From assembly GCA_023898465.1 (NCBI GenBank), contig CP060223.1:736001-800000 (forward strand): DNA of 64,000 nt. The letters are read 5' to 3'. Positions 578 to 62,772 of the stretch are shown here, piece by piece; the stretch's first letter is position 1, and every line of letters starts with the position of its first letter. Source of the DNA: Candidatus Nomurabacteria bacterium. GTDB lineage: Bacteria; Patescibacteriota; Patescibacteriia; HK-STAS-PATE-3. A program made the position numbers and the translations under genes. Under the pieces are notes generated by a model. The model saw nothing but the letters and a program-made list of their open reading frames with translations. It had not been told where the DNA came from and searched no databases.

Positions 578-686
578 GTCTCCTCCCTGAGTTTGTATTC
601 TCCCCTGGACACCCCTCTTGAGAGGTACCCGGGGAAGATCACGTCCACCGAAGCTTCATGCAAGGGTGGACGTGATCGCTGAGCGC

Positions 687-1097
687 TTACTCGCGCTGCG
701 GGGTCAGGACAAGGACGGACTCGCCATCCTTTCCATTGACCGTGATGCGATAGGAGGAGAAGAACTCGGCCGGATCGTAGTAGACCGCACCAGACTCCTT
801 CCCAGCCTTGTCGTAGGACCCGACGTCGTAGACCGCCGTACCTCCGAAGGGATTCCGGATACTACGCCTGGCGTTCGCCACCCCAGCGATGGAATCCGGA
901 TAGACTCCTCCGTTCGCTGTAGCCCAGTCATCGACCATGTCCTGCACTTCGTAGGCATTGGACTTGGCCGTCGACAGACGTGCCCTGTCCTGCAGCGCCA
1001 GGTAATTCGGGACGGCGATGAGCGCCAGGATCCCGATGATGACCACCACGATCATGAGCTCGATGAGGGTGAATCCCTCCTGATTCTTCCGAAGCAT
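687..1097 (-). CDS. Type IV pilin / pseudopilin-like protein (prepilin-type N-terminal cleavage/methylation domain)
   Basis: ORF 687..1163(-). An internal Met gives MLRKNQEG|FTLIELMIVVVIIGILA, the canonical G|F(T)LIE prepilin cleavage site followed by a hydrophobic helix. RBS GGAGGAAGTG precedes this ATG. Sits immediately upstream of the prepilin peptidase. Confidence 0.8.
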   Translation of the reverse strand: MLRKNQEGFTLIELMIVVVIIGILALIAVPNYLALQDRARLSTAKSNAYEVQDMVDDWATANGGVYPDSIAGVANARRSIRNPFGGTAVYDVGSYDKAGKESGAVYYDPAEFFSSYRITVNGKDGESVLVLTPQRE

Positions 1098-1140
1098 CAC
1101 TTCCTCCTCTCTGGCTTCACCGGCAGCCAGTTGCCGTTGT

Positions 1141-1230
1141 AGAGAATATTTTTCTCTCCGCAATCCTTATTCCCTTCCTCCCCTTTCAAAAGGGGAGGCT
1201 AGGTGGGGTTAAGAACTCTGGAGAGAGGAG
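1141..1230. repeat. Palindromic intergenic element, family A copy 1 (outer arms TCTCTCCGCAAT…CTCTGGAGAGAGG, inner perfect hairpin CTCCCCTTTcaaaAGGGGAG)
   Basis: Near-identical to 3612..3700. Lies directly 5' of the pilin start on the minus strand. Confidence 0.7.
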
Positions 1231-1581
1231 GAGGACAACCAAGGCAGAAGTGACACAAGGTCACAACCGCGAAGATCGACCCTCCTCCATGTGCTAGTGA
1301 CGCCCGCATTCGCGCCAAAGTTGGCGGGTGAGCAGACGGCGGTGATGCGTCAATCCGCATCGAGCTCGCAGCGCCCGACGACGCTGCCACTCGTGCAAAA
1401 AGAGTTCCACATGATGGAAAAATGATATGACACCCTCCATCACTTGAACTCCTGATTACAGAAGCAATACGCGCTCCGCGCCATCCATGTTACCCCGCTC
1501 AAGAAGAGCAAGAGACAAAAGAAGGCGGTGAGTGGCCCGATCGGAGTGGTCAGCGCTCCGAGCATGCCAAGCGATAGCAGT

Positions 1582-2211
1582 TCAGCAGCCACTGCCTGAA
1601 AAAGATATCGCATCCTTGCCTCCTAGGTTTCTGGTCCGATATGCACCGAACCAGACTACAACGTGACAGACCAGGCTGACGCCTGGATATACCAGAGCCG
1701 CGAAACCATCCGGCCAGGCAACAACACCTTGCAACGCATACGCCAGCACGCCCAAACTCCACGGCCACTGGCTCATGCGCTGAGTACGAGAGAAACTCAT
1801 CTTCGCTATAGGTACAAAGGAAGGGATCACCACCACCTGAGCGATGATGTTCTCTGCCTTTGGATTATGAGCAAGGGTTGCGTAACCCAGAGCTATCACA
1901 ACGCCAATTCCCATAGACATGTCCCACGCGTCGATCCTCGCAATCTGGCTGACTTGCTTCCACCCGAGCTTCACAATGTACGCAAGGGTGAAGAGCATGA
2001 TCAGGCTAATGCAGGCGACCTGCACATAGGTAAAGATGCGCGCGTAAAGTGACGTGAATTCCCGATAGGTAAGAAAATTCAACATCACCCACACAAACCA
2101 CATCCCGATGGTAACGGGATGCGGCACTTCGCCCTTGAAGATGGCTCGGAGATACGCGAAGTATGCTCCAGCCAAAGCCAAGGAAGCAAGAACCATACAT
2201 ACCGCTCCCAT
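1582..2211 (-). CDS. Hypothetical polytopic membrane protein
   Basis: 209-aa ORF with several hydrophobic helices. RBS GGAGGTATTC precedes the ATG. No recognisable family. Confidence 0.5.
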   Translation of the reverse strand: MGAVCMVLASLALAGAYFAYLRAIFKGEVPHPVTIGMWFVWVMLNFLTYREFTSLYARIFTYVQVACISLIMLFTLAYIVKLGWKQVSQIARIDAWDMSMGIGVVIALGYATLAHNPKAENIIAQVVVIPSFVPIAKMSFSRTQRMSQWPWSLGVLAYALQGVVAWPDGFAALVYPGVSLVCHVVVWFGAYRTRNLGGKDAISFSGSGC

Positions 2212-2282
2212 GAATACCTCCAGCTAAACGTGTTTTCTTCCTCCCTTGAATAACTAAACTCAATTTAGTAACTCAAGGGAGG

Positions 2283-2313
2283 CTCCGTCCATGTAGGTGT
2301 GACATGGACGGAG
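2283..2313. repeat. Perfect 12-bp inverted repeat CTCCGTCCATGT-(7)-ACATGGACGGAG
   Basis: Seen directly. Lies in the 5' region of the 1582..2211(-) gene. On the minus strand it is preceded by GGCGGCCGCC+T6, a terminator-like sequence. Confidence 0.6.
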
Positions 2314-2399
2314 CGGTACGGCCTTGAACCTTTCAAAAAAGGCGGCCGCCATCACTGCGCTGCGTATGTTTGGTGATGCAACGCTTTGTGACAAAGCTG

Positions 2400-2497
2400 T
2401 GGCAGATGCAGGATTCGAACCCAACGACTCGCGAAAGAGTCATCTGGTGAATCGGTTGTTAACCGACGGGACCACTCCCTGGTCACCAGCACCTGCC
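2400..2497 (-). ncRNA. tRNA-like structured element (7-bp acceptor-like stem GGCAGGT/ATCTGCC, GGGTTCGAATCC T-loop-like motif, several internal hairpins); not a canonical tRNA
   Basis: Minus-strand sequence GGCAGGTGCTGGTGACCAGGGAGTGGTCCCGTCGGTTAACAACCGATTCACCAGATGACTCTTTCGCGAGTCGTTGGGTTCGAATCCTGCATCTGCCA (98 nt). It has the T-loop consensus and a terminal acceptor-like pairing. It cannot be folded into a standard cloverleaf by hand. Confidence 0.3.
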
Positions 2498-2504
2498 AAT
2501 AAAG

Positions 2505-2555
2505 TATACACTCTCCGCAGTCCCGTACCTCACATGGTACGAGGCTCTGGAGAGA
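2505..2555. repeat. Palindromic intergenic element, family B copy 1 (arms CTCTCCGCAGTC…CTCTGGAGAG, inner hairpin CCGTACCtcacatGGTACGAG)
   Basis: Shares arms with family A but carries a different inner hairpin. Related copy at 3053..3112. Confidence 0.7.
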
Positions 2556-2594
2556 TCCGGAGCAAGTAACGTGTACTTACTCCGGAGAGAAAGG

Positions 2595-3014
2595 TCACAT
2601 GACGCGACCGAGCCTCGATCGAAGTCGTCCGAGCTGCGGCACAGTGAGAAGATCGTTCCGATGCTGAGAGCGTCGTCTCTCTTCTTCTGCACGACACCTC
2701 TCGGTCTCGCGCTTCTGTCGCTTGTCCGCTTCAGTCTTCCGCCACGCTTCCAGCGCGTGACGGAGCGTGTGGAGGACGTCGTACGCATCCTCCGGACGAT
2801 GCGATGCGCAATGTGGCTCGACCACTCCGTGCGTCTGACCTCGATGCGGGCAATACGCCTGCTTCGGACTGCAGGCTTGGCCGCACTGACGACAGACCAG
2901 ACTAGCCTCTTCCGGGTTCGCCAAGATCTTTTCGACCTCGGCTTCAGTGAAAGACCTCGGGACCATGTAGGACCCGGACTCGCTGAGAACCATCATCGAG
3001 ATTGAGAATGACAT
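2595..3014 (-). CDS. Hypothetical small Cys-rich protein (possible zinc-ribbon)
   Basis: 139-aa ORF with CRQCGQAC…CPH…C cysteine cluster and a basic C-terminus. RBS GAGGAGG precedes the ATG. Confidence 0.45.
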   Translation of the reverse strand: MSFSISMMVLSESGSYMVPRSFTEAEVEKILANPEEASLVCRQCGQACSPKQAYCPHRGQTHGVVEPHCASHRPEDAYDVLHTLRHALEAWRKTEADKRQKRETERCRAEEERRRSQHRNDLLTVPQLGRLRSRLGRVM

Positions 3015-3052
3015 CGTAGCCTCCTCACTGACTTCCGGCGTCAGCAGCCGCT

Positions 3053-3112
3053 TAGAGAAACCATTTCCTCTCCGCAGTCTCGTACCTCACATGGTACGAG
3101 GCTCTGGAGAGG
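3053..3112. repeat. Palindromic intergenic element, family B copy 2
   Basis: TAGAGAAACCATTTCCTCTCCGCAGTC + CTCGTACCtcacatGGTACGAG + GCTCTGGAGAGG. The left module is identical to that of A copy 2. Confidence 0.7.
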
Positions 3113-3157
3113 CCCCGAACTGTGGAAGCTCAGGGCGAAAATCGATTGGACTTGAGA

Positions 3158-3595
3158 CTAGGTTAGTCTCTCAACCGATTTCACGTACACCCAACCCTTC
3201 AATCGGCCTCGAACGTAAGATACGGTGACCTCACTTCCTTCAGCAACAGCATCGAAGAGCTGACGTTCTACAGAAACAGTATCTCGTCCTTCAGCAACAT
3301 CGACTGTCAGCTCCCACTTGTCGGAGTGGTGTACGCTTTGAGGCAGAGTCGTTTTTGTTGCCGCATTATAGACATACATAACGGTGACGTGTGCGGCCGT
3401 GAACGTCTTGTTAACAACGCGCCCTCGGCCCTCTTGAAGCGGTCGGAACCACGAGTCAATCGCCGTGAAGATGCCCCAACCCAGCGCAACGAGCACGATG
3501 AGCACGATGAGAAGTATGACTGCAGCTAGGAGTGACCCATAGGGCCAATCGTTCAAGAGCTCCATAAATCCCCTCATCATATCAGCCGAAAACAT
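3158..3595 (-). CDS. Hypothetical membrane-anchored protein (N-terminal TM helix, beta-rich C-terminal domain)
   Basis: 145-aa ORF. RBS AAAGGGAGGG precedes the ATG. Hydrophobic segment LLAAVILLIVLIVLVALGWGIF. Confidence 0.5.
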   Translation of the reverse strand: MFSADMMRGFMELLNDWPYGSLLAAVILLIVLIVLVALGWGIFTAIDSWFRPLQEGRGRVVNKTFTAAHVTVMYVYNAATKTTLPQSVHHSDKWELTVDVAEGRDTVSVERQLFDAVAEGSEVTVSYVRGRLKGWVYVKSVERLT

Positions 3596-3611
3596 ATCGC
3601 CCTCCCTTTGC

Positions 3612-3700
3612 TAGAGAAACCATTTCCTCTCCGCAGTCCTCATTCCCTTCCTCCCCTTTCAAAGGGGAGGCTAGGTGGGGTTAAGAACTCTGGAGAGAGG
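3612..3700. repeat. Palindromic intergenic element, family A copy 2
   Basis: TAGAGAAACCATTTCCTCTCCGCAGTCC…CTCCCCTTTcaaAGGGGAG…GTTAAGAACTCTGGAGAGAGG. Almost identical to 1141..1230. Confidence 0.7.
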
Positions 3701-3767
3701 AGGAGAAGGGCAGTCTTCTTCTCCAGTGTACTTGTCACCCGCTCTACTGCCTGCGGGAAAGAACTAG

Positions 3768-4217
3768 TCAGATGCACTCAGGGTGTGCACCGACATAACG
3801 CCCTTCCACTCCTATTGTAGAGACGTAATCTCCACAAATCTCCCCTCCACACATGACACAACCATGGGTAGCACATGGTTCCTTTTCTCGGGGTGTCCAG
3901 TCACAGGACCCCCCTCTTTCCTTGCCGCATGAGTAGCACGCGGCTACCCACTCGACAATTCCCTTGTGATCTTCAGGGGATTGGATGGGTACCTGGAATG
4001 ATATCCCCGTCAGATCCACACCACAGAATTTGCACTGTTTGTCATATACCGTCCCACGCCGAACTTCCAGTTCGGCTAGTCCGCGTTGATCCATCCCTGC
4101 CATTTCCCCTTTCCTTATGGTGGGGATATGATCGTTACAATATGCAACGTCATAAAGCAGGCCAGATGTGTAGTGAGTCGCGACCTGGTTACACGTATGA
4201 CAATGGATGGTCTTCAT
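3768..4217 (-). CDS. Hypothetical Cys-rich protein (multiple CxxC pairs)
   Basis: 149-aa ORF with about 16 Cys, including CHTC, CKFC, CYSC and CVMCGGEIC motifs. Confidence 0.45.
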   Translation of the reverse strand: MKTIHCHTCNQVATHYTSGLLYDVAYCNDHIPTIRKGEMAGMDQRGLAELEVRRGTVYDKQCKFCGVDLTGISFQVPIQSPEDHKGIVEWVAACYSCGKERGGSCDWTPREKEPCATHGCVMCGGEICGDYVSTIGVEGRYVGAHPECI

Positions 4218-5097
4218 TTCATCCTCCAGCGCCTAGAGCGCTTTTACCTGCCCCGCGGAGCAAGCGTATTTCAACTTCTTGGTGAAAGGAATCGTGCACG
4301 CGTACGTGCAGTATGTAGAATCCCCTTCCAGCGGGGCACAGCGCGCAAGGCACTATGGAGTCGCCACCATCGCTTGATGATGACCCTCCTCAAATCGTCC
4401 TCCGACTCAAACTTATTCGACAAGAATCAAGCGAGCTACAAAATTAACTTCATGAGAACGACTTAAGGAGAAATAGATTGTCAACGTTCACGAATCCTCA
4501 GCAACAATCTGGAGGCGAGTAACGAAATGTATCTTTGGACCGAGGCCCGATACACCCTACAGTTTCTCATGAAAGTAGTCAGTTTGCACCAACCGCGATC
4601 ATGTCCACTGGATGTCACTCCCCCTCCATATTGCTGCTGGAGATGAAAGAGGCAGACTTGAGGTATCGGTTTTCCACAATGCTGAGCAAAAGCCCAACAC
4701 CGTAGGATACCTCAAGTCCAACTCCTTCCTTTCCCGGAAGATCGGAGCGAGGTGGTCGCGGCCCTTCGCTCAAAATTTGCGTGACCGGCCAAATGCTCCC
4801 TCCGATGTTTCGGGAAAGTACTGCTAATAAAAATAGGCAGTAGACTGGGGATTTCGAGGAGACGACGAAACACGCAGTATACTGCCTTTTTACTCACCGT
4901 TTTTACGTAGGCAAAACCGGTGTCTCTCTCCTCGGATATTTATTTGGAATGAACCCCCTAAATCAGCGTAACAGCGGATAATACCATACCTAGCTATTCT
5001 TGTCAAGAGTTAAAGGTGCTAATATTAGCCAATTTAGCTAAAATTAGCCCATCCTTACATTATTCCCAGGTGGTAGAAGGAAGGGCTGGGGGTGGCG

Positions 5098-8179: not shown

Positions 8180-8282
8180 GGTTTTTTCCTCCCAGCAGAA
8201 AAAAATTGGATGTCAAAAAACCGCAAGTAAGAAATACCATACGCCAAAAATACGGCTTTGTCAACGCCTAGCGCCGTGTTAA

Positions 8283-9366
8283 TTATATTACCGCACCCTC
8301 GCCTTTTAAATACGCTTCGATAAAGCCATCCAAATCACCATCGAGTACGGCTTGCGGATTATCTCCCTCGTGCTTAGTGCGATGATCTTTCACCATCTTA
8401 TAGGGATGCAACACATAAGAGCGAATTTGATTTCCCCATTCAGCTGAGTGAAATTCACCCCGAAGTTCTTTGCGCTTTTCCTCTTGTTCTTCCAGCCGCC
8501 TCATGTGCAATTTCTGCTTGAGAATCTTCATGGCTGTCTCTAGGTTCTGCTTTTGCGAACGCTCATTCTGACACTGCACAGTAATCTTGGTGGGTAAATG
8601 GACAATCCGTATAGCTGAATAGGTAGTGTTCACGCTCTGTCCACCATGACCTGAGGCCGTTGATGCCTCAATCTTCAAATCCTTTTCATCAATAACAATA
8701 TCAGGCAAGTCGCCAAAGTCCGGGATCACCTCAACAAGCGCAAATGAAGTATGACGCATCTTCTCGGCATCAAAAGGAGAAATGCGCACGAGGCGATGCA
8801 CACCTGCTTCGGCTTTGAGATAACCATAAGCATAGCGACCAAGCACTTCCATAGTAACACTCTTTATGCCCGCCTCACTACCTCGAGACTCATCAATCAC
8901 TTTCGCTGTCCAGCCCTTGCGTTCAAAATAACGCAGGTACATGCGCTTCAACATCTCAGCCCAATCCTGCGCATCAGTACCACCCGCTCCGGCATGAATA
9001 GCAAAGACGGCATCATTGGCATCGTACTCGCCACTAAGCATCATAGTAAATTCAAGCTGAGTAAAATCTTTCTCCAGCTTTTCGATTTGCGACTGCAGCT
9101 CTTCAGAGTCGCCAGTCTCTTGAGCTAGCTCATCTAGGGCTTGCGATTCTTCTTGCATTCGTTGCCAAAGCTCAACCTCTTTCTTAAGTTCGTCAAATTC
9201 ACGACTTGTCTTTGCCGCTGCCATATTGTCAGACCAGAAATCTGGCTGACTCATCTTATCTTCTAATTCCTTCAATAACTGCTGCTTTTGCGGCAGGTCA
9301 AAGAAACCCCCGTGAGGAGGCAATCTTTTGTGCGAGTTCGTGGATGCGTCCTTGAAGATCAGTCAT
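8283..9366 (-). CDS. prfB: Peptide chain release factor 2 with programmed +1 frameshift
   Basis: GGQ motif (ASGHGGQSVNT) and SPF motif (RISPFDAEK) identify RF2. The upstream short frame ATG(9366)…GGG TTT CTT TGA C ends at the classic CUU UGA C shift site with an SD-like GGGGG just before it. The +1 frame continues DLPQKQQLLKELE…, matching the listed ORF 8283..9323. Confidence 0.9.
9297..9303 (-). promoter_or_regulatory. RF2 autoregulatory +1 frameshift site CUU UGA C
   Basis: Seen in sequence. Preceded by AGGGGG (internal SD). Confidence 0.85.
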
Positions 9367-9616
9367 AAAACAAAAGTAACATACAAATTTGCTGAAAGCA
9401 ATTCTCGATACACTGATATGACTCCTGTTGCGCGCTGCTGCTGTCTCTGCATGAATAAACCGAGTAGTCAGCATTGATGTTCAGCAGCGCTTGATTCTTT
9501 TGCTTCTTTTCTGATCCCTGTCCCGAACGAAGTCATCGAGCCTGTTGTGATGACGATGTTGAGGGAAAGCAGAAAAGAAGTGTATGGACACCTCTCCGTT
9601 CACTAAGTACGATGCA

Positions 9617-36146: not shown

Positions 36147-36722
36147 TTGACCCAGCGCAGAATTTATCAAAACACATACCCATACCATCTCACCACGGTA
36201 ACGAAAAACCGACGGTGGGCATTTCGAGATGTGAAACTAGCATGGAAATTGCACCAGGCAATTCTTGGCGCGTGTTTTGTTAAAGGTTACACCGCGCTGG
36301 CATTTTGCATATTACCGGACCATATACATTTGTTGGTTTGGAAGCATATCCCAGCGCGGGTAGGAGAACCCACGCTGGGCCTGGATGAAATACAAACACA
36401 ATTATTATTCCCCGAAGCCCAGCGCGCGTTCTCTAACGTGCGCGATAACAACCATGATGACATTTCATACTTAATGAAATCAATAAAAGGCACCTTTGCT
36501 CGATCAATTTCCTCCGGCCCCATCTGGCAACCCAGCTTCAATTCCCGCATCGTCGACTCTGATCAACGCCTCTACAACACACTGCAGTATATTCAATATA
36601 ATTATCGTAAACATAAACTACCCGCACACTATGGCCAAGCACCATATACCTTTCTTAATATCCCAAAAAGCATTTACAACATTGACCAAAACCGGTTTTT
36701 CTCGTACGATGGCAGAGATTGA
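36147..36722 (+). CDS. IS200/IS605-family HuH Y1 transposase-like protein, solitary (RayT/TnpA-REP-like)
   Basis: TTG start. YHLTTVTKNRR and ILPDHIHLLV (HuH) motifs are typical of Y1 transposases. No accompanying tnpB or IS ends are evident. Confidence 0.7.
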   Translation: MTQRRIYQNTYPYHLTTVTKNRRWAFRDVKLAWKLHQAILGACFVKGYTALAFCILPDHIHLLVWKHIPARVGEPTLGLDEIQTQLLFPEAQRAFSNVRDNNHDDISYLMKSIKGTFARSISSGPIWQPSFNSRIVDSDQRLYNTLQYIQYNYRKHKLPAHYGQAPYTFLNIPKSIYNIDQNRFFSYDGRD

Positions 36723-39640: not shown

Positions 39641-40167
39641 AATGCATTGTTGGACTAGGTAACCCTGGCACGAAATATGACGACACCCGCCATAACCTGG
39701 GCTTCGCACTGGTTGACGCAATTGTTGAGCACCTTGAGTTAGCGCCTTTTCAAGAGCAGAGTAAATTTAAAGCTGAGATGACCCGCAATGATGATCCTAT
39801 CCATCATTGGTTTTTCATGAAGCCACAAACCTACATGAATAACTCTGGTGAGGCAGTTGGTGAGTTTGTCCGATTCTATAAACTTCCGCTCAATGATTTA
39901 CTGGTTATTCACGATGATCTTGATTTACCTTTCGGTGAAATAAAGCATGTTGTTGATCGCGGACCGGCTGGACATAATGGAGTACAATCAATCATCGATG
40001 TTGTGGGCTCACAAGCTTTTCATCGTATCCGCATCGGCATTGGATCAAACAAGGAACTAGGCATTCCCTCTGAGGACTACGTTCTGCAAAAATTCAACAC
40101 TGAGGAAAAGCAAAAAATCTCCGAGCTACTCGAGCCTGTCCTCAACATCATTCTGAACTGGGCCTAA
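39637..40167 (+). CDS. pth: Peptidyl-tRNA hydrolase
   Basis: MKCIVGLGNPGTKYDDTRHNLGF N-terminal signature. Confidence 0.9.
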   Translation: MKCIVGLGNPGTKYDDTRHNLGFALVDAIVEHLELAPFQEQSKFKAEMTRNDDPIHHWFFMKPQTYMNNSGEAVGEFVRFYKLPLNDLLVIHDDLDLPFGEIKHVVDRGPAGHNGVQSIIDVVGSQAFHRIRIGIGSNKELGIPSEDYVLQKFNTEEKQKISELLEPVLNIILNWA

Positions 40168-40351
40168 AGAAAAAACGCCAGTGTCAGTTTTCCTACGAGT
40201 GCGGGGCTTCACACTCTTTTTTGTAGTACTTACCAACACTGGCGTTGCAGGTCCGGAGGGTCGTCCGGACAGAGAAGGACATCGGCCGCGCTTGGCGAGA
40301 AGGAAGCGAGCTTCAATGCGAGTCTCACTCAAGCAACGACCGACGTCCATG

Positions 40352-40423
40352 TGCCGTGGGAGGGATTCGAACCCCCAACCTTCAGATTACGAGTCAGATG
40401 CTCTACCACTGAGCTACCACGGC
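40352..40423 (-). tRNA. tRNA-Thr (anticodon CGU)
   Basis: Manual cloverleaf GCCGTGG…CCACGGC-A. Anticodon arm TCTGA-CTCGTAA-TCTGA has one U·U pair. Confidence 0.7.
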
Positions 40424-40579
40424 AGCTGTGTTGCGGGTCCTCAGGGCCTGCATGCTCTTCCCAGCGTACTGGACACTTTGGGCTGCAACACAACTTTTTA
40501 AGGACAGGCCGGGAAAATCCCGGGGGTGTTTATCTATGCACCTCTCGGTGAACTGATGGTATTTCACCTGTCCAAGATG

Positions 40580-40650
40580 AGCGGGAGACGGGATTTGAAC
40601 CCGCGACCTTCCGCCAGAGGCGGCTGCTCTGCCAACTGAGCTACGCCCGC
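40580..40650 (-). tRNA. tRNA-like gene with non-canonical anticodon arm (isotype undetermined; possible pseudogene)
   Basis: Acceptor GCGGGCG/CTCCCGC has one mismatch. D and T arms are canonical. Between them CCGCC-TCT-GGCGG forms a perfect 5-bp stem with only a 3-nt loop, so no 7-nt anticodon loop can be drawn. Confidence 0.45.
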
Positions 40651-40796
40651 AAAAAAGAACGGACTAAGAATGTAGCGTATCCCCAAAAAGCTGTCAACCC
40701 TGTACCAGGCTTGGTGCGAGGTCAACCCTATCGTTCGCGAACTACGGAATCAAGAAAAAGGGAGATGCCATCAATGATGAACATCTCCCGAAGATT

Positions 40797-40868
40797 TGGT
40801 ACCTCCTGGAATCGAACCAGGGTAACCCGATTTTCAGTCGAGCACTCTACCAACTGAGTTAAGGTACC
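40797..40868 (-). tRNA. tRNA-Phe (anticodon GAA)
   Basis: GGTACCT acceptor. Anticodon arm CTCGA-CTGAAAA-TCGGG. T-loop TTCGATT. Confidence 0.8.
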
Positions 40869-40956
40869 GCTAGAGCGTGGCGGAAAGGCGAAGGACTTTC
40901 ACCAACTCACTGATCAAGACCAGCGTGTCCTCGGGGACGCCTTTCCAGAACAGATG

Positions 40957-41028
40957 AGGCGGGTCAAGGATTTGAACCTCGGAATCGCGGATTTGAAGAC
41001 CGCTGCCTTACCACTTGGCTAACCCGCC
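40957..41028 (-). tRNA. tRNA with UCA anticodon, tRNA-Cys-like body (candidate UGA-reading tRNA)
   Basis: GGCGGGT/ACCCGCC acceptor with discriminator U73. Anticodon arm GCGGT-CTTCAAA-TCCGC gives U33, anticodon 34-36 = UCA, A37. Short variable loop, 72 nt. The acceptor, discriminator and anticodon stem closely resemble bacterial tRNA-Cys (GCA), with G34 changed to U. Confidence 0.55.
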
Positions 41029-41050
41029 TTTCAACCTATAAGTTAGAGAG

Positions 41051-41124
41051 GCGCCCTGGAAGGAATTGAACCTCCGACATCTGGGTCCATAGCCCAGCGC
41101 TCTTCCGACTGAGCTACAGGGCAC
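41051..41124 (-). tRNA. tRNA-His-like (extra 5' G-1 opposite C73); anticodon reads AUG by manual fold, atypical
   Basis: G-1 + TGCCCTG acceptor with C73. D-arm GCTC-AGTCGGAA-GAGC. Anticodon arm CTGGG-CTATGGA-CCCAG. Body resembles tRNA-His, but position 34 is A rather than G. Confidence 0.45.
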
Positions 41125-41133
41125 AACAAACGG

Positions 41134-41206
41134 TAGCGCAAGCAGGATTCAAACCTACGTTTCCACACAGAGAATGTGGCGACCTAAACCACTAGTCGAT
41201 TGCGCC
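41134..41206 (-). tRNA. tRNA, anticodon CUC by manual fold (Glu-like), atypical U37
   Basis: GGCGCAA/TTGCGCT acceptor (G1·U72). Anticodon arm CCACA-TTCTCTG-TGTGG. T-loop TTTGAAT. Confidence 0.45.
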
Positions 41207-41311
41207 GGCAAATAGATTGCGACAGACCCTCTTCCGAGAGAGTGACGGCTCATCCTGCTATGAAAGAGGCCATCACAAAATGGTAAGCAATGTACTACAC
41301 CTGATCTAATG

Positions 41312-41386
41312 CGGCGCTGACAGGATTTGAACCTGCGAAACACTCGGCTGACCGCCGAGCTGCCTTAACCACTAGACTACAGCGCC
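41312..41386 (-). tRNA. tRNA-Asp-like (anticodon GUC), with 6-bp anticodon stem and G33
   Basis: GGCGCTG/CAGCGCC acceptor. Anticodon arm GCTCGG-CGGTCAG-CCGAGT. 75 nt. Confidence 0.5.
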
Positions 41387-41470
41387 AAAAAAAGAGCTGT
41401 CCGATGGTACCCCGGAAAATTACTTATGTCAAGAAACCCCGCCTCATCATTTGACAAGGCGGGGTAACTA

Positions 41471-42118: not shown

Positions 42119-42466
42119 TCCTTCTCAACCCCGGGAGGTGTATGTAGCTGCAAAGAACTGACCAGAGCTAGGGAGGCTGATGCACAGCTGCCATGCATCC
42201 GATACAGTTATCTCTAGTGTACCCTATTCGGGAATAAAGAAAAAACTCGGCCACACAGCGTCGCCGGCAAGTGGAAAGCAATAGCTGATAAACAGTACTA
42301 CCTTCACTTGAAGCTACTTGGTTTGCATAGGAGGGGTCGCATTCCGTTCGCAACTTACCGACGACGCCATACTGCCGAGCATAGCGAAGCCACTTTCACT
42401 ACCATGAACGTAACGGGAAAAAATAGCATGCATTTCCCACTTTGTCAAGGGTGAAAGGAGAAGATA

Positions 42467-59260: not shown

Positions 59261-59740
59261 TTAACTTTCCCCAATTTCGCTTTTTCCTAACCAAGCGTCA
59301 ATCGTCCACTTCCATGATTTACGCCATACAAGGAAAATAGACAATACAATCAAACCTAAATCCTTTAAGAGCGCTTCAGTCGGTGTCGCTCCGATCGAGA
59401 AAGTACCAAAGCAACCACAATCGATGTCTGTGTTCCCTCGAGCAATATTAATACTAATGGCAATGATAAAGCTCAAGAGCATAAGCGTGAGCGCTCCAGC
59501 CGCCCATCGACGCCAAAATCCAGCCAACACAAAGAGACCGCCCAATAACTCAATCCACGGCGTCACCAATGCGAATATACTTACCATACCCTCGGGAAGT
59601 AATTCGTAGGTGCGAATCGCTGCCTCAAATTCCTCCACTGGCGCCATGAGCTTCCCAAGCGCGGCGTAAACAAAGATTCCACCGACCAGCAAGCGAGCAA
59701 GCCATTCTAAGGCAATCAGCCAGCGCTTAGTTGTTGGCAT
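59261..59740 (-). CDS. DoxX/MauE-family membrane protein with CGCFG motif (putative thiol-oxidoreductase partner)
   Basis: Four TM helices and a …IDCGCFGTF… motif characteristic of MauE/DoxX-like proteins. Start taken at the internal Met to avoid overlap with the downstream DsbA. Confidence 0.6.
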   Translation of the reverse strand: MPTTKRWLIALEWLARLLVGGIFVYAALGKLMAPVEEFEAAIRTYELLPEGMVSIFALVTPWIELLGGLFVLAGFWRRWAAGALTLMLLSFIIAISINIARGNTDIDCGCFGTFSIGATPTEALLKDLGLIVLSIFLVWRKSWKWTIDAWLGKSEIGES

Positions 59741-60527
59741 TGACCTCGGATTGGTCAGTCGATGCAGTAGCGTCCGCTTCGGCAATTGCGGCATCGATCA
59801 CGGACTTCCAATTATCAGTGGTCATACCACCGACACGTCGCTCTCCATTGATGAAGAAGGTAGGAGTAGAATTTACCTTACGAGCATTACCTTCCCCAAT
59901 ATCAGTATTTACCGCTTCTTTTTGCTCGGTATTATCTATACAGCTTTGAAAAGCTTCGGAATCAATCCCAAGGTCAGAAGCGTACTGCACAAAAGTGTCA
60001 GTAACGGTGGAGCCGCTTAATACTGACCAGCTCGCTTGCTCCTCAAAAAGTTTATCGTGATACTCCCAGAACTTACCTTGCGCGAATGCACATTGTGCCG
60101 CCTCTGCAGCTGCTCGTGCATTTTTGTGAATGGTAGTTAAGGGATAATCATTGTACACAAAGCGCACATCATTTGGATATGCCGCCAACACTTCAGGGAG
60201 ATTTGTATCTGCTGCCTTACAGGCTGGACACTGGAAATCTGAGTACTCTTCAATTAAGACCTTTGCGGTTTCAGGACCTCGGCTTGGGTCGTTATCGTTT
60301 GAGAAATCACCTGCTGTACTTGTATTGTCACTACCCTGGAAAGCCCAAATACCTCCTCCAACAACCACTACAAGAATGATGACAGTCCAAATAAGCTTTT
60401 TCATACGGGCTGACTGGGCACCTTTTTCTCGGTTTGCCATTTTTTCTTGGCGTCGTAATTCTCGTCGCTGTTTTTTGGTTAGCTGCTGTTCTGTATTATC
60501 GTTCATAGCTTTGTAGAAAAGTATCAA
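59727..60527 (-). CDS. DsbA-like thioredoxin-fold thiol:disulfide oxidoreductase, membrane-anchored (paralog 1)
   Basis: TM anchor. CxxC active site FQCPACK. C-terminal cis-Pro region …TPTFFING…. Confidence 0.7.
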   Translation of the reverse strand: MILFYKAMNDNTEQQLTKKQRRELRRQEKMANREKGAQSARMKKLIWTVIILVVVVGGGIWAFQGSDNTSTAGDFSNDNDPSRGPETAKVLIEEYSDFQCPACKAADTNLPEVLAAYPNDVRFVYNDYPLTTIHKNARAAAEAAQCAFAQGKFWEYHDKLFEEQASWSVLSGSTVTDTFVQYASDLGIDSEAFQSCIDNTEQKEAVNTDIGEGNARKVNSTPTFFINGERRVGGMTTDNWKSVIDAAIAEADATASTDQSEVNANN

Positions 60528-61170
60528 GTAGTCCTAAATCCCAGGTTAAAGTTTGCTCGCTTTGTCCGGGGATGGCAATAGTCAATTGTAAGGTTTTTGG
60601 ATTCACTTTATCGATATCCAATCCTTCTTCACTTGTCCGGGCAAAGGCTACTAAGCCAATACGTTGATTGACTTCAGAGGCTGGCAAGAGCACTGAGTTA
60701 GCCTCTGACCACTGCTGCACGGGATATACATTACCCTCATCATCACTTAAGCTAACAATTTCCTCAGGATCAAATTCAGAAAGTTCATCATCTGAACTAG
60801 CTAAGGTGAGGTAGAAGACGATTGTATCAGTATTTGGCTTCAGGATGGCTAAACGATCAGCAACTTCACCCTGATGCCCTGATTTGGTGGGAAGCGCCTC
60901 TAATGCACTAGCCAGCTCTGGGAAAAAATAGCTCGCTTCTACCAATATCTTTGCATTCGTATCACCACTCCGCCAGCCAGCATCAAAGTAATCAGTAAAG
61001 ACGCCTTCGGGGGAAGTATCGCTTGAGGTATTACTAAGGAGTGTAGTGTCGCTAATAGAACTCGATCCATGCGGCCAACTTAGCCACACTCCGAAGATAA
61101 TTACCACAATACCAAAAGCCCAGAACCACACGGGCAAACTGGGCTTTGGTGTAACTTTCTTACGTGGCAT
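60496..61170 (-). CDS. Hypothetical exported protein with N-terminal TM anchor (DUF4352-like beta-sandwich, tentative)
   Basis: 224 aa with a signal-anchor and S/T-rich linker. Confidence 0.45.
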   Translation of the reverse strand: MPRKKVTPKPSLPVWFWAFGIVVIIFGVWLSWPHGSSSISDTTLLSNTSSDTSPEGVFTDYFDAGWRSGDTNAKILVEASYFFPELASALEALPTKSGHQGEVADRLAILKPNTDTIVFYLTLASSDDELSEFDPEEIVSLSDDEGNVYPVQQWSEANSVLLPASEVNQRIGLVAFARTSEEGLDIDKVNPKTLQLTIAIPGQSEQTLTWDLGLLDTFLQSYER

Positions 61171-61184
61171 GCTGCCGAATCGTT

Positions 61185-61967
61185 CTAGAGTAACTGGTCA
61201 ATAACTGATTTGAAGCTGGCGTACGGAAGTGCGCCGCTAATCAATTGACCAGTAGTGACATCGTCACCCTGTAAGACAAAGGTGGCCGGAGTACCAGACA
61301 CACCAGCGAGTTCTCCTTCACTCATATCAGCCTGTACATCATCATCATACTTCTTGCTCTGGTAGCAATCATTAAACTTATCAACGTTTAGTCCGAGATC
61401 GCTCGCTACCTGACTGTAATAGGAGTCGCTCATTGAAGACTGCGTTGCGAATATCTTATCGCCAAACTCCCAAAACTTATCTTGCTCAGCAGCACATTCA
61501 GAAGCATTTGCCGCTGGTAGCGCTTGAGGGTGAATCGAAGTGAGTGGGAAATGTCGATACACTAGAGAAACAGTGTCAGGATTCTCATCAATAATTCGCT
61601 GCAAGGTTGGGTGAAGGTTGCTGCAGTATGGGCACTGGAAATCAGAGAACTCTACCAGTACTACTTTTGCTTTAGAAGGGTCAGCGCCAAGGTAATGATC
61701 ATCCTTGGTTGGCTTGCTAATAGCCGATGCGTTGCCGGTCGGGGCTGCAGCTGCAGAGGTGTTTGTATTTGCTGCGGCCACTGTATCGGTTCCCTTTACT
61801 GTTGCAGTTGAAGCGCCACCGCCAAACATAATAAAGCCCAGCGCAGTAAGTGCTACGCCAACAAAAAGACCCAACATAAATGTGGTCTTGGGAGGTGCAT
61901 CGAGGATGCCGGCTGGACGTGAGCCTTCACCCGATGGCACGTTACGAACTACTGGAGATGGTGTCAT
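61185..61967 (-). CDS. DsbA-like thiol:disulfide oxidoreductase, membrane-anchored (paralog 2)
   Basis: FQCPYCSNLHP CxxC motif. …TPATFVLQG…. Confidence 0.7.
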   Translation of the reverse strand: MTPSPVVRNVPSGEGSRPAGILDAPPKTTFMLGLFVGVALTALGFIMFGGGASTATVKGTDTVAAANTNTSAAAAPTGNASAISKPTKDDHYLGADPSKAKVVLVEFSDFQCPYCSNLHPTLQRIIDENPDTVSLVYRHFPLTSIHPQALPAANASECAAEQDKFWEFGDKIFATQSSMSDSYYSQVASDLGLNVDKFNDCYQSKKYDDDVQADMSEGELAGVSGTPATFVLQGDDVTTGQLISGALPYASFKSVIDQLL

Positions 61968-62043
61968 GTGCTCGAGAATTTAAGAAAAAAATGAAATGCC
62001 TAAGTGATGGATAGTATACGAATTTTGAGCCCGTATTGTCAAT

Positions 62044-62772
62044 TTACTCTAACAACCCTTCTATCAACTGCTGAAAAGTGGCAAAAGGTAGGGCCCCTTC
62101 AATTTTTCTTCCGTTTACAAAAAACGTAGGCGTGCCACGAACCCCTAAATCCAAGCCGTCGGAAAAATCGTCCAAAATTTCATTCTCATATTTGCCACTA
62201 GTTATACAACTCGTAAACTCATCTTCTTTCACTCCGGCTAATCTAGCCCAAGCCAGGATATTTTCCTGCGTCATTTCGTCTTGTCCAATAAACATACGAT
62301 CATGGAGCGACCAATATTGATTTGAGCCTTGTTCCCAAGCACACTGCCCTGCTTCAGCCGCAAATAACGCGAGTGGATGAGCCTCAGTAACTGGGTAATC
62401 ACGAAAGACAAAACGAATTTGCCCACTGTAGGTATTCATAAGCTGACGTACGGTTGGAAACACCTCCTTACAATAGGGGCATTGGTAATCTCCAAACTCA
62501 ACAATAGTTACTGCAGCATCAGCAGGACCGAGTGATGGATCATTTTCACCGACCAGTTGAGCATCGAGATTGCTATTTGTGTTTACTCCCTGATTTTGCT
62601 GGGTATTAAACGTAAAACTACTGGTATCGCTAGTGATAACCTTTTGCAAGGAATGAATAGTAAGCCCGACGTATCCGCCACTCAAAATAATGAAAAGCGC
62701 GCCAAGACCAAGTACCCATGGTTTCATATACCAAGGGCGACTTTTTTGTACATACGATGGCACGTCTTGCAT
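62044..62772 (-). CDS. DsbA-like thiol:disulfide oxidoreductase, membrane-anchored (paralog 3)
   Basis: YQCPYCKEVFP CxxC motif. …TPTFFVNG…. Confidence 0.7.
   Translation of the reverse strand: MQDVPSYVQKSRPWYMKPWVLGLGALFIILSGGYVGLTIHSLQKVITSDTSSFTFNTQQNQGVNTNSNLDAQLVGENDPSLGPADAAVTIVEFGDYQCPYCKEVFPTVRQLMNTYSGQIRFVFRDYPVTEAHPLALFAAEAGQCAWEQGSNQYWSLHDRMFIGQDEMTQENILAWARLAGVKEDEFTSCITSGKYENEILDDFSDGLDLGVRGTPTFFVNGRKIEGALPFATFQQLIEGLLE

Follow-up and report, generated by a model that had tools for sequence, protein, structure and literature searches.

A clade-specific island of seven tRNA genes between pth and mfd in Candidatus Nomurabacteria, with probably maintained tRNA bodies and mostly altered anticodon arms

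In this study, we show that a 64-kb stretch of the chromosome of Candidatus Nomurabacteria, a bacterium of the Candidate Phyla Radiation (CPR; Patescibacteria), carries between its pth and mfd genes an array of seven tRNA genes, five of which are irregular. The whole stretch (contig CP060223.1, positions 736,001 to 800,000) is called the window here, and coordinates are counted from its first nucleotide; the array lies on the minus strand, opposite to pth. In our judgment it is likely that the array is a clade-specific accessory island whose tRNA bodies are under selection and whose anticodon arms have been changed. We also propose, tentatively, that the odd RNAs act as spare or decoy tRNAs, because the body is conserved while the anticodon loop changes and the gene set turns over between relatives. 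To the explanation taken whole, that is an accessory island with spare or decoy roles, we would give an even chance.

The tRNA genes were detected with ARAGORN and with the Rfam covariance model RF00005 (gathering score 29 bits), and anomalies were judged from cloverleafs, covariance-model alignments and minimum-free-energy (MFE) folds. Of the 12 tRNA-like genes that ARAGORN lists for the window, seven lie on the minus strand within 40351-41386, and RF00005 matched all seven as well, at 48.5-74.5 bits and thus above the gathering score. The original prediction, which described a seven-gene array with several non-canonical members, is upheld by both programs, and cloverleafs, alignments and folds bear out each anomaly that it named. 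An independent assembly from a different sequencing run (L028) repeats the region with 1 single-nucleotide polymorphism in 1303 nt, and the anomalies are therefore not sequencing errors. In all seven genes the 7-bp acceptor, 4-bp D and 5-bp T stems are intact except for one C6·U67 and one Cys-type A13·A22 mismatch, and the variable loops measure 4-5 nt by Rfam alignment (3-6 nt as ARAGORN draws them). Mismatched pairs number 0 of 35 in the T stem and 1 of 49 in the acceptor stem, so that the defects concentrate in the anticodon arm.

Phe-GAA (40797-40868, 68.8 bits) has a canonical cloverleaf, and Thr-CGU (40352-40423, 74.5 bits) is canonical save for a U29·U41 mismatch that its counterpart in the related locus L034 shares; the claim that both are normal holds for Phe, and for Thr it holds apart from that mismatch. 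The gene at 40580-40650 (52.5 bits), which ARAGORN reads as Arg-UCU, has an anticodon arm of 15 nt instead of 17, and the covariance model deletes two loop positions. It had been said to allow no 7-nt loop: the MFE fold has 5 bp and a 3-nt loop, and a 7-nt loop (CCUCUGG, with C33) is drawn by ARAGORN only via a four-position stem made of a G·A and three Watson-Crick pairs. The acceptor stem of this gene holds the C6·U67 mismatch, its body is Gly-type (G1:C72, C2:G71, G3:C70, U73) and lacks the Arg element A20, and with the anticodon masked 10 of its 25 nearest neighbours in the reference tRNA set are Gly-GCC. It is matched best by a viral UCA tRNA, which shares the 15-nt arm and the G27·A43 pair and lies at 8278-8350 on the minus strand of an IMG/VR contig (3300041809_000574; L301). 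That viral gene is a Gly-type tRNA with U73-CCA, and its array also has Ala tRNAs of 79-80 nt with unusual D arms. The viral scans that yielded it, together with the reference set, used Cys/Gln-type D-arm and T-arm motifs, which are generic across isotypes.

The gene at 40957-41028 (63.7 bits) had been treated as a Cys tRNA, a reading that overlooked its anticodon UCA, of the opal-suppressor type and reading the stop codon UGA, as well as a U31·U39 mismatch that leaves a 4-bp anticodon stem and a 9-nt loop. The body is Cys-type (U73, G1:C72, G2:C71, C3:G70, A13·A22), and with the anticodon masked 18 of the 25 nearest neighbours are Cys-GCA. Of the identity set of cysteinyl-tRNA synthetase (CysRS), U73, G2:C71, C3:G70 and the 13:22 mismatch are present, with UCA in the place of GCA. 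ARAGORN labels this gene SeC(tca) because of the anticodon only. A tRNA-Sec (selC) is expected to have an 8/5 acceptor/T branch of 13 bp, a 6-bp D stem, a long variable arm, a length of about 95 nt and the anticodon UCA; the gene at 40957-41028 is 72 nt long, of 7/5 format with a 5-nt variable loop, and matches RF00005 and not RF01852, and the assignment to tRNA-Sec was rejected.

The remaining three genes have bodies that agree with their anticodons, as do those of Thr and Phe, and body and anticodon are discordant in two of the seven. His-AUG (41051-41123, 60.7 bits) has an encoded G-1 at 41124 that pairs with C73, the identity mark of bacterial His tRNAs, and a U1·G72 pair; its loop CUAUGGA puts A at position 34, as had been noted, its other stems are perfect, and the A34 is also present in L028. 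Glu-CUC (41134-41206, 50.6 bits) has the G1·U72 and U37 already reported, visible in both cloverleaf and alignment, as well as U56, a 4-nt variable loop and U13·G22, and a U32·G38 pair could close its loop to 5 nt. Asp-GUC (41312-41386, 48.5 bits; G73 and G10) has a 19-nt anticodon arm, which folds either into 6 bp with the loop CGGUCAG, giving the G33 and the 6-bp stem first described, or, by MFE, into 7 bp with the 5-nt loop GGUCA, zipped via C32-G38; in the Rfam alignment it carries a 9-nt insert where the model has 7. When the covariance model was applied to the whole array, RF00005 did not fold all seven genes canonically, as this insert and the two loop deletions at 40580-40650 attest. 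A 17-nt arm of 5 bp and a 7-nt loop, with U33 and a purine at 37, is found in Thr (with its U29·U41), Phe and His, and not in the genes at 40580-40650, 41312-41386, 41134-41206 and 40957-41028. Two genes, UCA at 40957-41028 and AUG at 41051-41124, depart from the rule of a sense anticodon with A34 in Arg-ACG only.

Such features are rare elsewhere. The reference set comprised 1221 tRNAs of retrieved loci, for the most part phage tRNA arrays, a choice that biases against our conclusion. In it, a nucleotide other than U33 occurs in 5.0% (G33 in 0.16%), a pyrimidine at 37 in 1.5%, a loop of other than 7 nt in 0.4%, A34 outside Arg-ACG in about 0.8%, and a stop anticodon in about 0.7%. Any oddity at all is present in 7.5%, and against that background five odd genes out of seven have a probability of 4e-5. 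The spacing from D arm to T loop is abnormal in 5 of 15 tRNAs of the clade as against about 3% of 255 elsewhere. In a survey of about 1.7 million bacterial tRNAs, no species was rarer than His-AUG and Cys-ACA (0.002% each), 0.2% of the anticodon stems had neither 4 nor 5 bp, and suppressor tRNAs were found in 0.3% of standard-code genomes (PMC13092985).

The layout of the array suggests two transcription units. In the first, a promoter-like site P1 (TTGACA-17 nt-TACCAT, 41404..41432, minus strand; 10 of 12 matches in a consensus scan), 18 nt upstream of the Asp-type tRNA, would drive the five genes Asp, Glu, His, Cys-type UCA and Phe, and the unit would end at a terminator-like hairpin just past Phe (GGGAGATG...CATCTCCC then TTTTT, 40752..40789, minus strand). 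This hairpin was read from the sequence and is not listed by the automatic terminator scan, its loop being longer than the scan permits. The five genes between P1 and the hairpin, four of them irregular and one of these four with a suppressor-type anticodon, have the make-up of a polycistron of irregular tRNAs, and their co-transcription is inferred from these promoter and terminator signals. In the second unit, a near-consensus site P2 (TTGACA-17 nt-TACATT, 40669..40697, minus strand), 19 nt upstream of the Gly-type tRNA and conserved in L031, would be followed by the short-arm Gly-type RNA, a structured spacer, Thr and a terminator. The spacer (40424..40579, minus strand; 156 nt) contains a hairpin (about 72 nt) that directly adjoins the Thr tRNA at its 5' end. 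On the other side of Thr, a structured trailer and terminator (40168..40351, minus strand), common to the convergent pth, is 84% identical to L031 with three compensatory pairs. Spacer and trailer both fold as long GC-rich hairpins and match no Rfam family; they may be structured RNAs of unknown kind, processing signals or insulators.

The same locus was compared among relatives, the clade being defined by Pth homologs that are at least 59% identical (seven clusters at 90% identity), of which six diverged lineages were examined. The order lytR-der-pth-[gap]-mfd, or at least its pth side, is kept in the clade contigs, and the tRNA set in the gap, on the strand opposite to pth, differs in each lineage. 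The closest of them, L031 (Pth 86%), has a Lys-CUU reading and an 88-nt Gly-type RNA with a 32-nt arm. L032 (Pth 66%) has Lys-CUU, a Gly-type RNA with a 27-nt arm and CCA, and a Lys-UUU-like gene without a T arm (4860-4921), and L034-36 (Pth 60%) have Thr-CGU, a canonical Gly-GCC with CCA and a Cys-type UCA gene with a T-loop hairpin and A73. In L037 (Pth 59%) there are Lys-UUU, a Trp-type body with a 6-nt loop and a Gly-type RNA with a 45-nt arm and CCA. L038 (Pth 61%) combines Thr-UGU and two Gly-type bodies that read as Ala-UGC and Trp-CCA, with zipped or mismatched arms, with a Cys-type ACA gene, a CUA amber-type gene, Arg-ACG and a Cys-type body with GUA and G33. Its CUA gene is a well-formed amber-suppressor-type tRNA (73.4 bits) with an Asn-like D arm and anticodon stem, and stands beside the Cys-type ACA gene (1778-1851 and 1866-1940, minus strand); the Arg-ACG of the same island is a tRNA normally absent from CPR. 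The five-gene unit of the window has an ortholog only in the near-identical L028 and is absent from L031.

Outside the clade the island is not seen. The sister clade (Pth 52-55%) has no tRNA in its pth-mfd gap of 410-450 nt at 3 of 3 loci with the same synteny, tRNA-Val included, and no tRNA array stands beside pth at 80 more distant loci, which were metagenome matches to the Pth clade alignment of at most 51% identity and provide a negative control. A search of species-representative genomes with Mfd gave only matches of at most 47% identity, from unrelated phyla. Since the sister clade has no tRNA at this place, the distant loci have no array beside pth and the content differs in each lineage, these comparisons indicate that the island is an innovation of the clade in rapid flux. 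It is flanked by pth, by the gene of a TonB_C protein and by mfd; neither phage nor integrase genes were found around it, nor any convincing att-like flanking repeats, and blastn of the island against 50,697 phage records gave generic tRNA similarity only and no near-identical array. An IS200-like Y1 transposase fragment lies 3.4 kb away. It is part of a 191-aa open reading frame (ORF; 36147-36722, plus strand) that is absent at that position in relatives and ends in a TGA directly in frame with the TTG start of lytR (36723). In contrast to the remainder of the pth-mfd gap, a non-coding or small-ORF block upstream of mfd (about 42200-42360; a 61-aa ORF at 42168-42353, minus strand) shows 72-88% conservation in every member of the clade and also in the sister clade (L328-L330).

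The bodies of these RNAs appear to be under selection. In an alignment of eight Gly-type members from which the anticodon arm had been removed, the acceptor, D and T stems are 99.2% paired and 9 of 16 pairs show compensatory double changes, and none of 500 shuffles was as good. The arms of the same members, at 15, 15, 17, 17, 21, 27, 32 and 45 nt, form arbitrary stable hairpins. In the Cys-type family (n = 4), double changes occur in 8 of 21 pairs and the 13:22 mismatch is kept in 4 of 4, across the anticodons UCA, ACA, GUA and UCA and the discriminators U, U, G and A. The comparison with L031 is consistent with this. Third codon positions are 40% (der) and 44% (mfd) identical between the two, so that neutral sites are saturated; identity in the P2 unit (40166-40698) is nevertheless 83%, and in its 156-nt spacer 90%. 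The L031 ortholog of the Thr gene has the same acceptor and T arms with the anticodon CUU (Lys); all eight substitutions between the two fall within positions 12-46 and none among the 31 of the acceptor and T arms (P = 0.008), and one substitution pair is a compensatory change at 27:43. The Gly-type gene of L031 shows a G10:C25 to A10:U25 double change beside a wholly replaced arm.

Because the bodies covary strongly while the anticodon or the whole arm changes, the Gly-type and Cys-type genes are, as far as their alignments indicate, accessory tRNAs or tRNA-like RNAs that are being maintained, as opposed to pseudogenes in decay or the normal architecture of the lineage. The original prediction had offered both of those as alternatives, in the form of pseudogenes or paralogs retained beside functional copies, and of a lineage tolerant of unusual tRNAs. 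From the first, the accessory paralogs survive (the genes are absent from the sister clade and their content differs in each relative), and the pseudogenes fit poorly, in view of the promoters and terminator, the intact stems with defects confined to the anticodon arm, and the covariation in two scaffold families. A short intron or intron scar as the source of the long arms was considered as well, since group I introns at position 35/36 are common in tRNA-Asp and tRNA-Asn of Patescibacteria (PMC13011429). It is not supported: no excision yields a canonical loop, and group I introns are much longer than the inserts, though an origin by imprecise intron loss is conceivable. A Y RNA-like (YrlA) identity gave a weak sub-threshold match in L034 only (36.9 against 69 bits).

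The second alternative, a tolerant lineage, does not agree with the other tRNAs of the window. Val-CAC (32278), Leu-CAA (57197) and two Met-CAU (58847 and 59134) are canonical and encode CCA, and the Val gene is canonical with CCA at the same position in L033, L034 and the sister clade; the oddities are confined to the island. An encoded 3'-CCA is thus present in 4 of 4 Rfam-supported tRNAs outside the array and in 0 of 7 within it (Fisher P = 0.003). The window is bacterial chromosome, from a genome of 1.08 Mb (1,082,586 bp), and its Pth protein is identical to USN53279.1; it also encodes FtsA, FtsZ, class II ribonucleotide reductase, NrdR, YbeY, HisRS, LepB, LytR, Der and Mfd, besides DprA, TopA, RelA/SpoT, ParAB, ComEC and a giant protein with a type IV secretion system pilin domain.

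The window uses the standard genetic code. Among its long ORFs, 12 of 44 terminate in TGA, some of them in ATGA overlaps such as der/pth, and prfB, encoding release factor 2 (RF2), is present at 8283-9323 on the minus strand (458 bits on TIGR00020, cutoff 370, with the SPF motif). It is preceded by the autoregulatory +1 frameshift site ...GGG GGT TTC TTT GAC... (CUU UGA C) with GGGGG before it. In this region (8283-9400) the first 22 codons lie in another frame, with an ATG at about 9364, and a UGA-reading tRNA in the same genome would interfere with the frameshift site. An alternative code was sought by ORF coverage with each stop freed, stop usage, split ORF pairs, read-through lengths and TGA near CxxC, all with negative outcome; in the window no in-frame TGA was found among same-frame ORF pairs split by TGA or in the CxxC motifs of DsbA-like genes. 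A stop-reassigned genome (code 4 or 25) with a cognate UCA tRNA was rejected on the presence of prfB, the use of TGA as stop and the lack of in-frame TGA. Given the standard code and RF2, the UCA tRNA would compete with RF2 as a true suppressor instead of decoding a reassigned codon.

In the mechanism that we propose, Thr-CGU and Phe-GAA would be ordinary decoders and Glu-CUC a nearly ordinary one, and the Asp, His, Cys-type UCA and Gly-type genes would be paralogs with rewritten anticodon stem-loops (shortened, lengthened or zipped loops, G33 or C33, A34, a stop anticodon). The odd RNAs would be expressed and their altered loops would be their point: as spares or decoys they would be handled poorly by enzymes that recognize a canonical anticodon loop, such as anticodon nucleases, toxins, and modification enzymes reading U33-G34-U35, and the Cys-type UCA tRNA would weakly suppress opal codons in competition with RF2. 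Zipping to loops of 3-5 nt is possible, by MFE folds, in the short-arm gene, in Glu (U32·G38) and in Asp (C32-G38). Members with 3-5-nt loops or arms of 15-45 nt cannot be normal decoders. The U33-G34-U35 motif is what Tgt and colicin-E5-type nucleases read, and all three island genes of GUN type are altered in it (G33 in Asp, A34 in His, G33 in the GUA gene of L038). Lys, Arg and Thr tRNAs, which are known targets of nucleases and toxins, recur in the islands. A parallel comes from phages, in whose tRNAs changes of the anticodon loop are predicted to give escape from anticodon nucleases (PMC10264068).

The housekeeping decoders would then lie elsewhere. The window has 213 CAU and 130 CAC codons for His and 542 GAA codons for Glu, which the CUC anticodon cannot read. 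CPR appear to lack tRNA-Arg(ACG), and editing of A34 to inosine is probably unused there (PMC8629427); the A34 of the His tRNA would probably stay unmodified and read mainly CAU, without being a substitute for a G34 tRNA at CAC. Since AUG and CUC cannot cover CAC and GAA, and L031 is without the five-gene unit, we infer that canonical His, Asp, Cys, Glu and Arg decoders are encoded elsewhere in the 1.08-Mb genome.

Several points weigh against the interpretation that we favor. The stop anticodons are left unexplained by the idea of nuclease escape, and PADLOC, Pfam and NCBIfam revealed no toxin, toxin-antitoxin, anticodon nuclease or defense gene in the vicinity of the island or in those ORFs of the window that were tested. 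The His, Asp and Glu genes have no diverged ortholog, so that the verdict against pseudogenes covers the two scaffold families, and the high identity of the P2 unit to L031 could stem from recent transfer instead of constraint. The function of the odd RNAs, with their expression, processing and charging, is suggested by sequence features, and no canonical copies were seen elsewhere in the 64 kb of genome that were read. Moreover, some members are damaged in relatives: the T arm is deleted in the L032 gene at 4860-4921, and the UCA gene of L034 has a hairpin inserted in its T loop.

Such damage would be expected if the array were the relic of a tRNA cluster brought in by a phage or mobile element, with odd members that are non-functional and heading for deletion, an explanation that we regard as unlikely. 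It would also account for the content that differs in each relative, the absence of the island from the sister clade, the A73 of the L034 UCA gene, the lack of an encoded CCA in all seven array genes unlike in the housekeeping tRNAs, the closest match of the short-arm gene being in a viral array, and A34 tRNAs that are foreign to CPR decoding. However, relics would hardly be expected to keep acceptor, D and T stems by compensatory covariation in both scaffold families, or to concentrate their mismatches in the anticodon arm with the T and acceptor stems so nearly perfect, and promoters and terminator are intact. The conservation of the P2 unit at 83-90% against saturated neutral sites, and the lack of flanking phage or integrase genes, of att-like repeats and of a near-identical phage array, speak against it as well, and a genome of about 1 Mb is expected to purge dead DNA.

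It is also conceivable, though we think improbable, that these are tRNA-like RNAs with roles outside translation, in which the body serves amino-acid donation to envelope or other transferases, or as an RNase P/Z handle that frees spacer RNAs, and the arm is free to vary. For the Gly-type family this is attractive, its arm ranging from 15 to 45 nt while the remainder covaries; U73-CCA is encoded in the members of two relatives (L032 and L037), on both sides of the Thr gene, spacer and trailer are conserved and highly structured, and the non-proteinogenic tRNA-Gly of staphylococci is a precedent. Yet no aminoacyl-transferase gene of Fem/MprF type lies near the island, and GlyRS, AspRS, GluRS and CysRS normally use anticodon bases as identity elements. 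Well-formed 7-nt loops with stop or A34 anticodons would, moreover, be left without explanation. A bolder extension of our own interpretation, which we rate as rather improbable too, is that the pth-mfd gap holds a dedicated, fast-diversifying cassette in which Gly-, Cys- and Thr-type bodies are kept and their arms rewritten to stop readers, A34, switches between Thr-CGU and Lys-CUU, and non-decoding hairpins. Such a cassette would be a generator of new decoding specificities, or of decoys in an arms race over the anticodon loop, and a visible intermediate of code change while RF2 persists.

The weakest candidate is that all are genuine decoders, an unmodified A34 reading CAU, the odd Asp, Glu and Arg tRNAs working, and the Cys-type UCA tRNA marking an ambiguous or incipient reassignment of UGA to Cys; this we consider very unlikely because loops of 3-5 nt, G33 and arms of 15 or 19 nt are incompatible with normal decoding geometry, RF2 has a UGA-dependent frameshift site, TGA is a common stop with no in-frame TGA in the window, anticodons AUG and CUC by themselves do not suffice for the CAC and GAA codons, L031 does without the five-gene unit, which is therefore dispensable, and the other tRNAs of the lineage are canonical. 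In its favor, the bodies of His, Glu and Asp fit their anticodons with the expected identity elements (G-1:C73; a 4-nt variable loop with U13·G22; G73 with G10), CAU is the commoner His codon, UCA stands on a Cys-type body in two lineages (the window and L034), certain CysRS forms have been reported to charge tRNA-Cys(UCA) (PMC5389517), and UGA reassignment is known elsewhere in Patescibacteria (PMC13092985).

Apart from the island, the window contains three tandem DsbA/thioredoxin-like lipoprotein paralogs with CPxC motifs (59727-62772, minus strand), one of which weakly matches a "(seleno)lipoprotein" family. They adjoin a MauE/DoxX membrane protein, and all their CxxC motifs are intact and none is split by TGA.

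If the RNAs of the island are made, a streamlined symbiont of 1 Mb pays for an opal-suppressor-type tRNA alongside RF2, keeps His-AUG, one of the two rarest bacterial anticodons (the other, Cys-ACA, is in a relative), and maintains tRNA bodies whose anticodon arm has been swapped for arbitrary hairpins. This would bear on how stop-codon reassignment begins, as an ambiguous intermediate with the release factor still there, on whether cells, besides phages, keep nuclease-proof or decoy tRNAs, and on what selection preserves of a tRNA that does not serve in decoding. In practical terms, annotation pipelines will enter the odd genes as Arg, SeC, His, Glu and Asp, which would mislead the inference of tRNA complement and genetic code in CPR.

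We found no account of such arrays from CPR in the literature. The nearest precedent is that of the irregular-tRNA polycistrons and allo-tRNAs, which are likewise co-located and apparently co-transcribed, place many anticodons, nonsense and missense suppressor types among them, on one scaffold, and include a Cys-type UCA tRNA with U73; some of them were active in translation and others not (Mukai et al. 2017, NAR; PMC5389517). Those cases come from Acidobacteria, Clostridia, Proteobacteria and phages, and the array described here is from CPR. They differ further in that allo-tRNAs have 8/4 or 9/3 branches and long variable arms, whereas the seven tRNAs here are 7/5 with short variable loops and irregular in the anticodon arm, and in their reported association with toxin-antitoxin or transposon genes (PMC5389517), whereas no toxin gene was found next to the island by PADLOC, Pfam or NCBIfam. 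The same 8/4 or 9/3 layout as in allo-tRNAs (Mukai et al. 2017) is seen in a 99-nt tRNA-like element elsewhere in the window (2399-2497, minus strand): its acceptor stem has 8 or 9 bp and its T stem 4 or 3 bp, the T loop is the consensus GGUUCGAAUCC, and the variable arm is long. The anticodon loop is regular, of 7 nt, and reads AAC, again with A34; position 73 is A, and ARAGORN calls the element Val(aac). Its only Rfam match is to tRNA-Sec below threshold (22.3 bits, E = 0.05), and the z-score of its MFE is -4.7. The surrounding stretch (about 600-4500) is richer in GC, and none of the ORFs there has a Pfam match. The tRNA-ProX of Streptomyces reportedly is a deliberately mistranslating tRNA with Ala, Thr or Asn anticodons, often with A34, served by a dedicated synthetase paralog; it would share with the island a body of one isotype under the anticodon of another, but no synthetase paralog was found next to the island.

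Phage tRNA arrays are also clusters of accessory tRNAs that deviate in the anticodon loop (van den Berg et al. 2023, eLife; PMC10264068), and C33, U37, A34 and stop anticodons do occur in the phage reference set at low frequency. In contrast to those, the array described here is chromosomal and stands among housekeeping genes with no phage genes around, its odd fraction is about ten times higher (5 of 7 against 7.5%), and body and anticodon, which phage array tRNAs keep concordant, are discordant in two of its seven members. The 4-bp-stem tRNAs of "extended superwobble" (Fakih et al. 2026; PMC13092985) resemble the U31·U39 of the UCA tRNA and the G27·A43 of the short-arm gene, and Thr-CGU is one of the species in which that survey finds 4-bp anticodon stems most often (PMC13092985). 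However, the arm remains 17 nt long in that class, one terminal pair being open, whereas the arms of 15 and 19 nt found here are true ones, of a class that makes up at most 0.2% of the survey (PMC13092985). Finally, the suppressors of recoded lineages, namely tRNA-Gly(UCA) of Absconditabacteria/Gracilibacteria and tRNA-Trp(UCA) of code-4 bacteria, including the Patescibacteria family JAKLIH01, have in common with the island a UCA anticodon in CPR on a class-I tRNA of 7/5 format (PMC13092985). They differ from it in their setting, since here RF2 and UGA stops are present and no in-frame UGA was seen, and in their scaffold, which is Gly- or Trp-type there and Cys-type in the array between pth and mfd.

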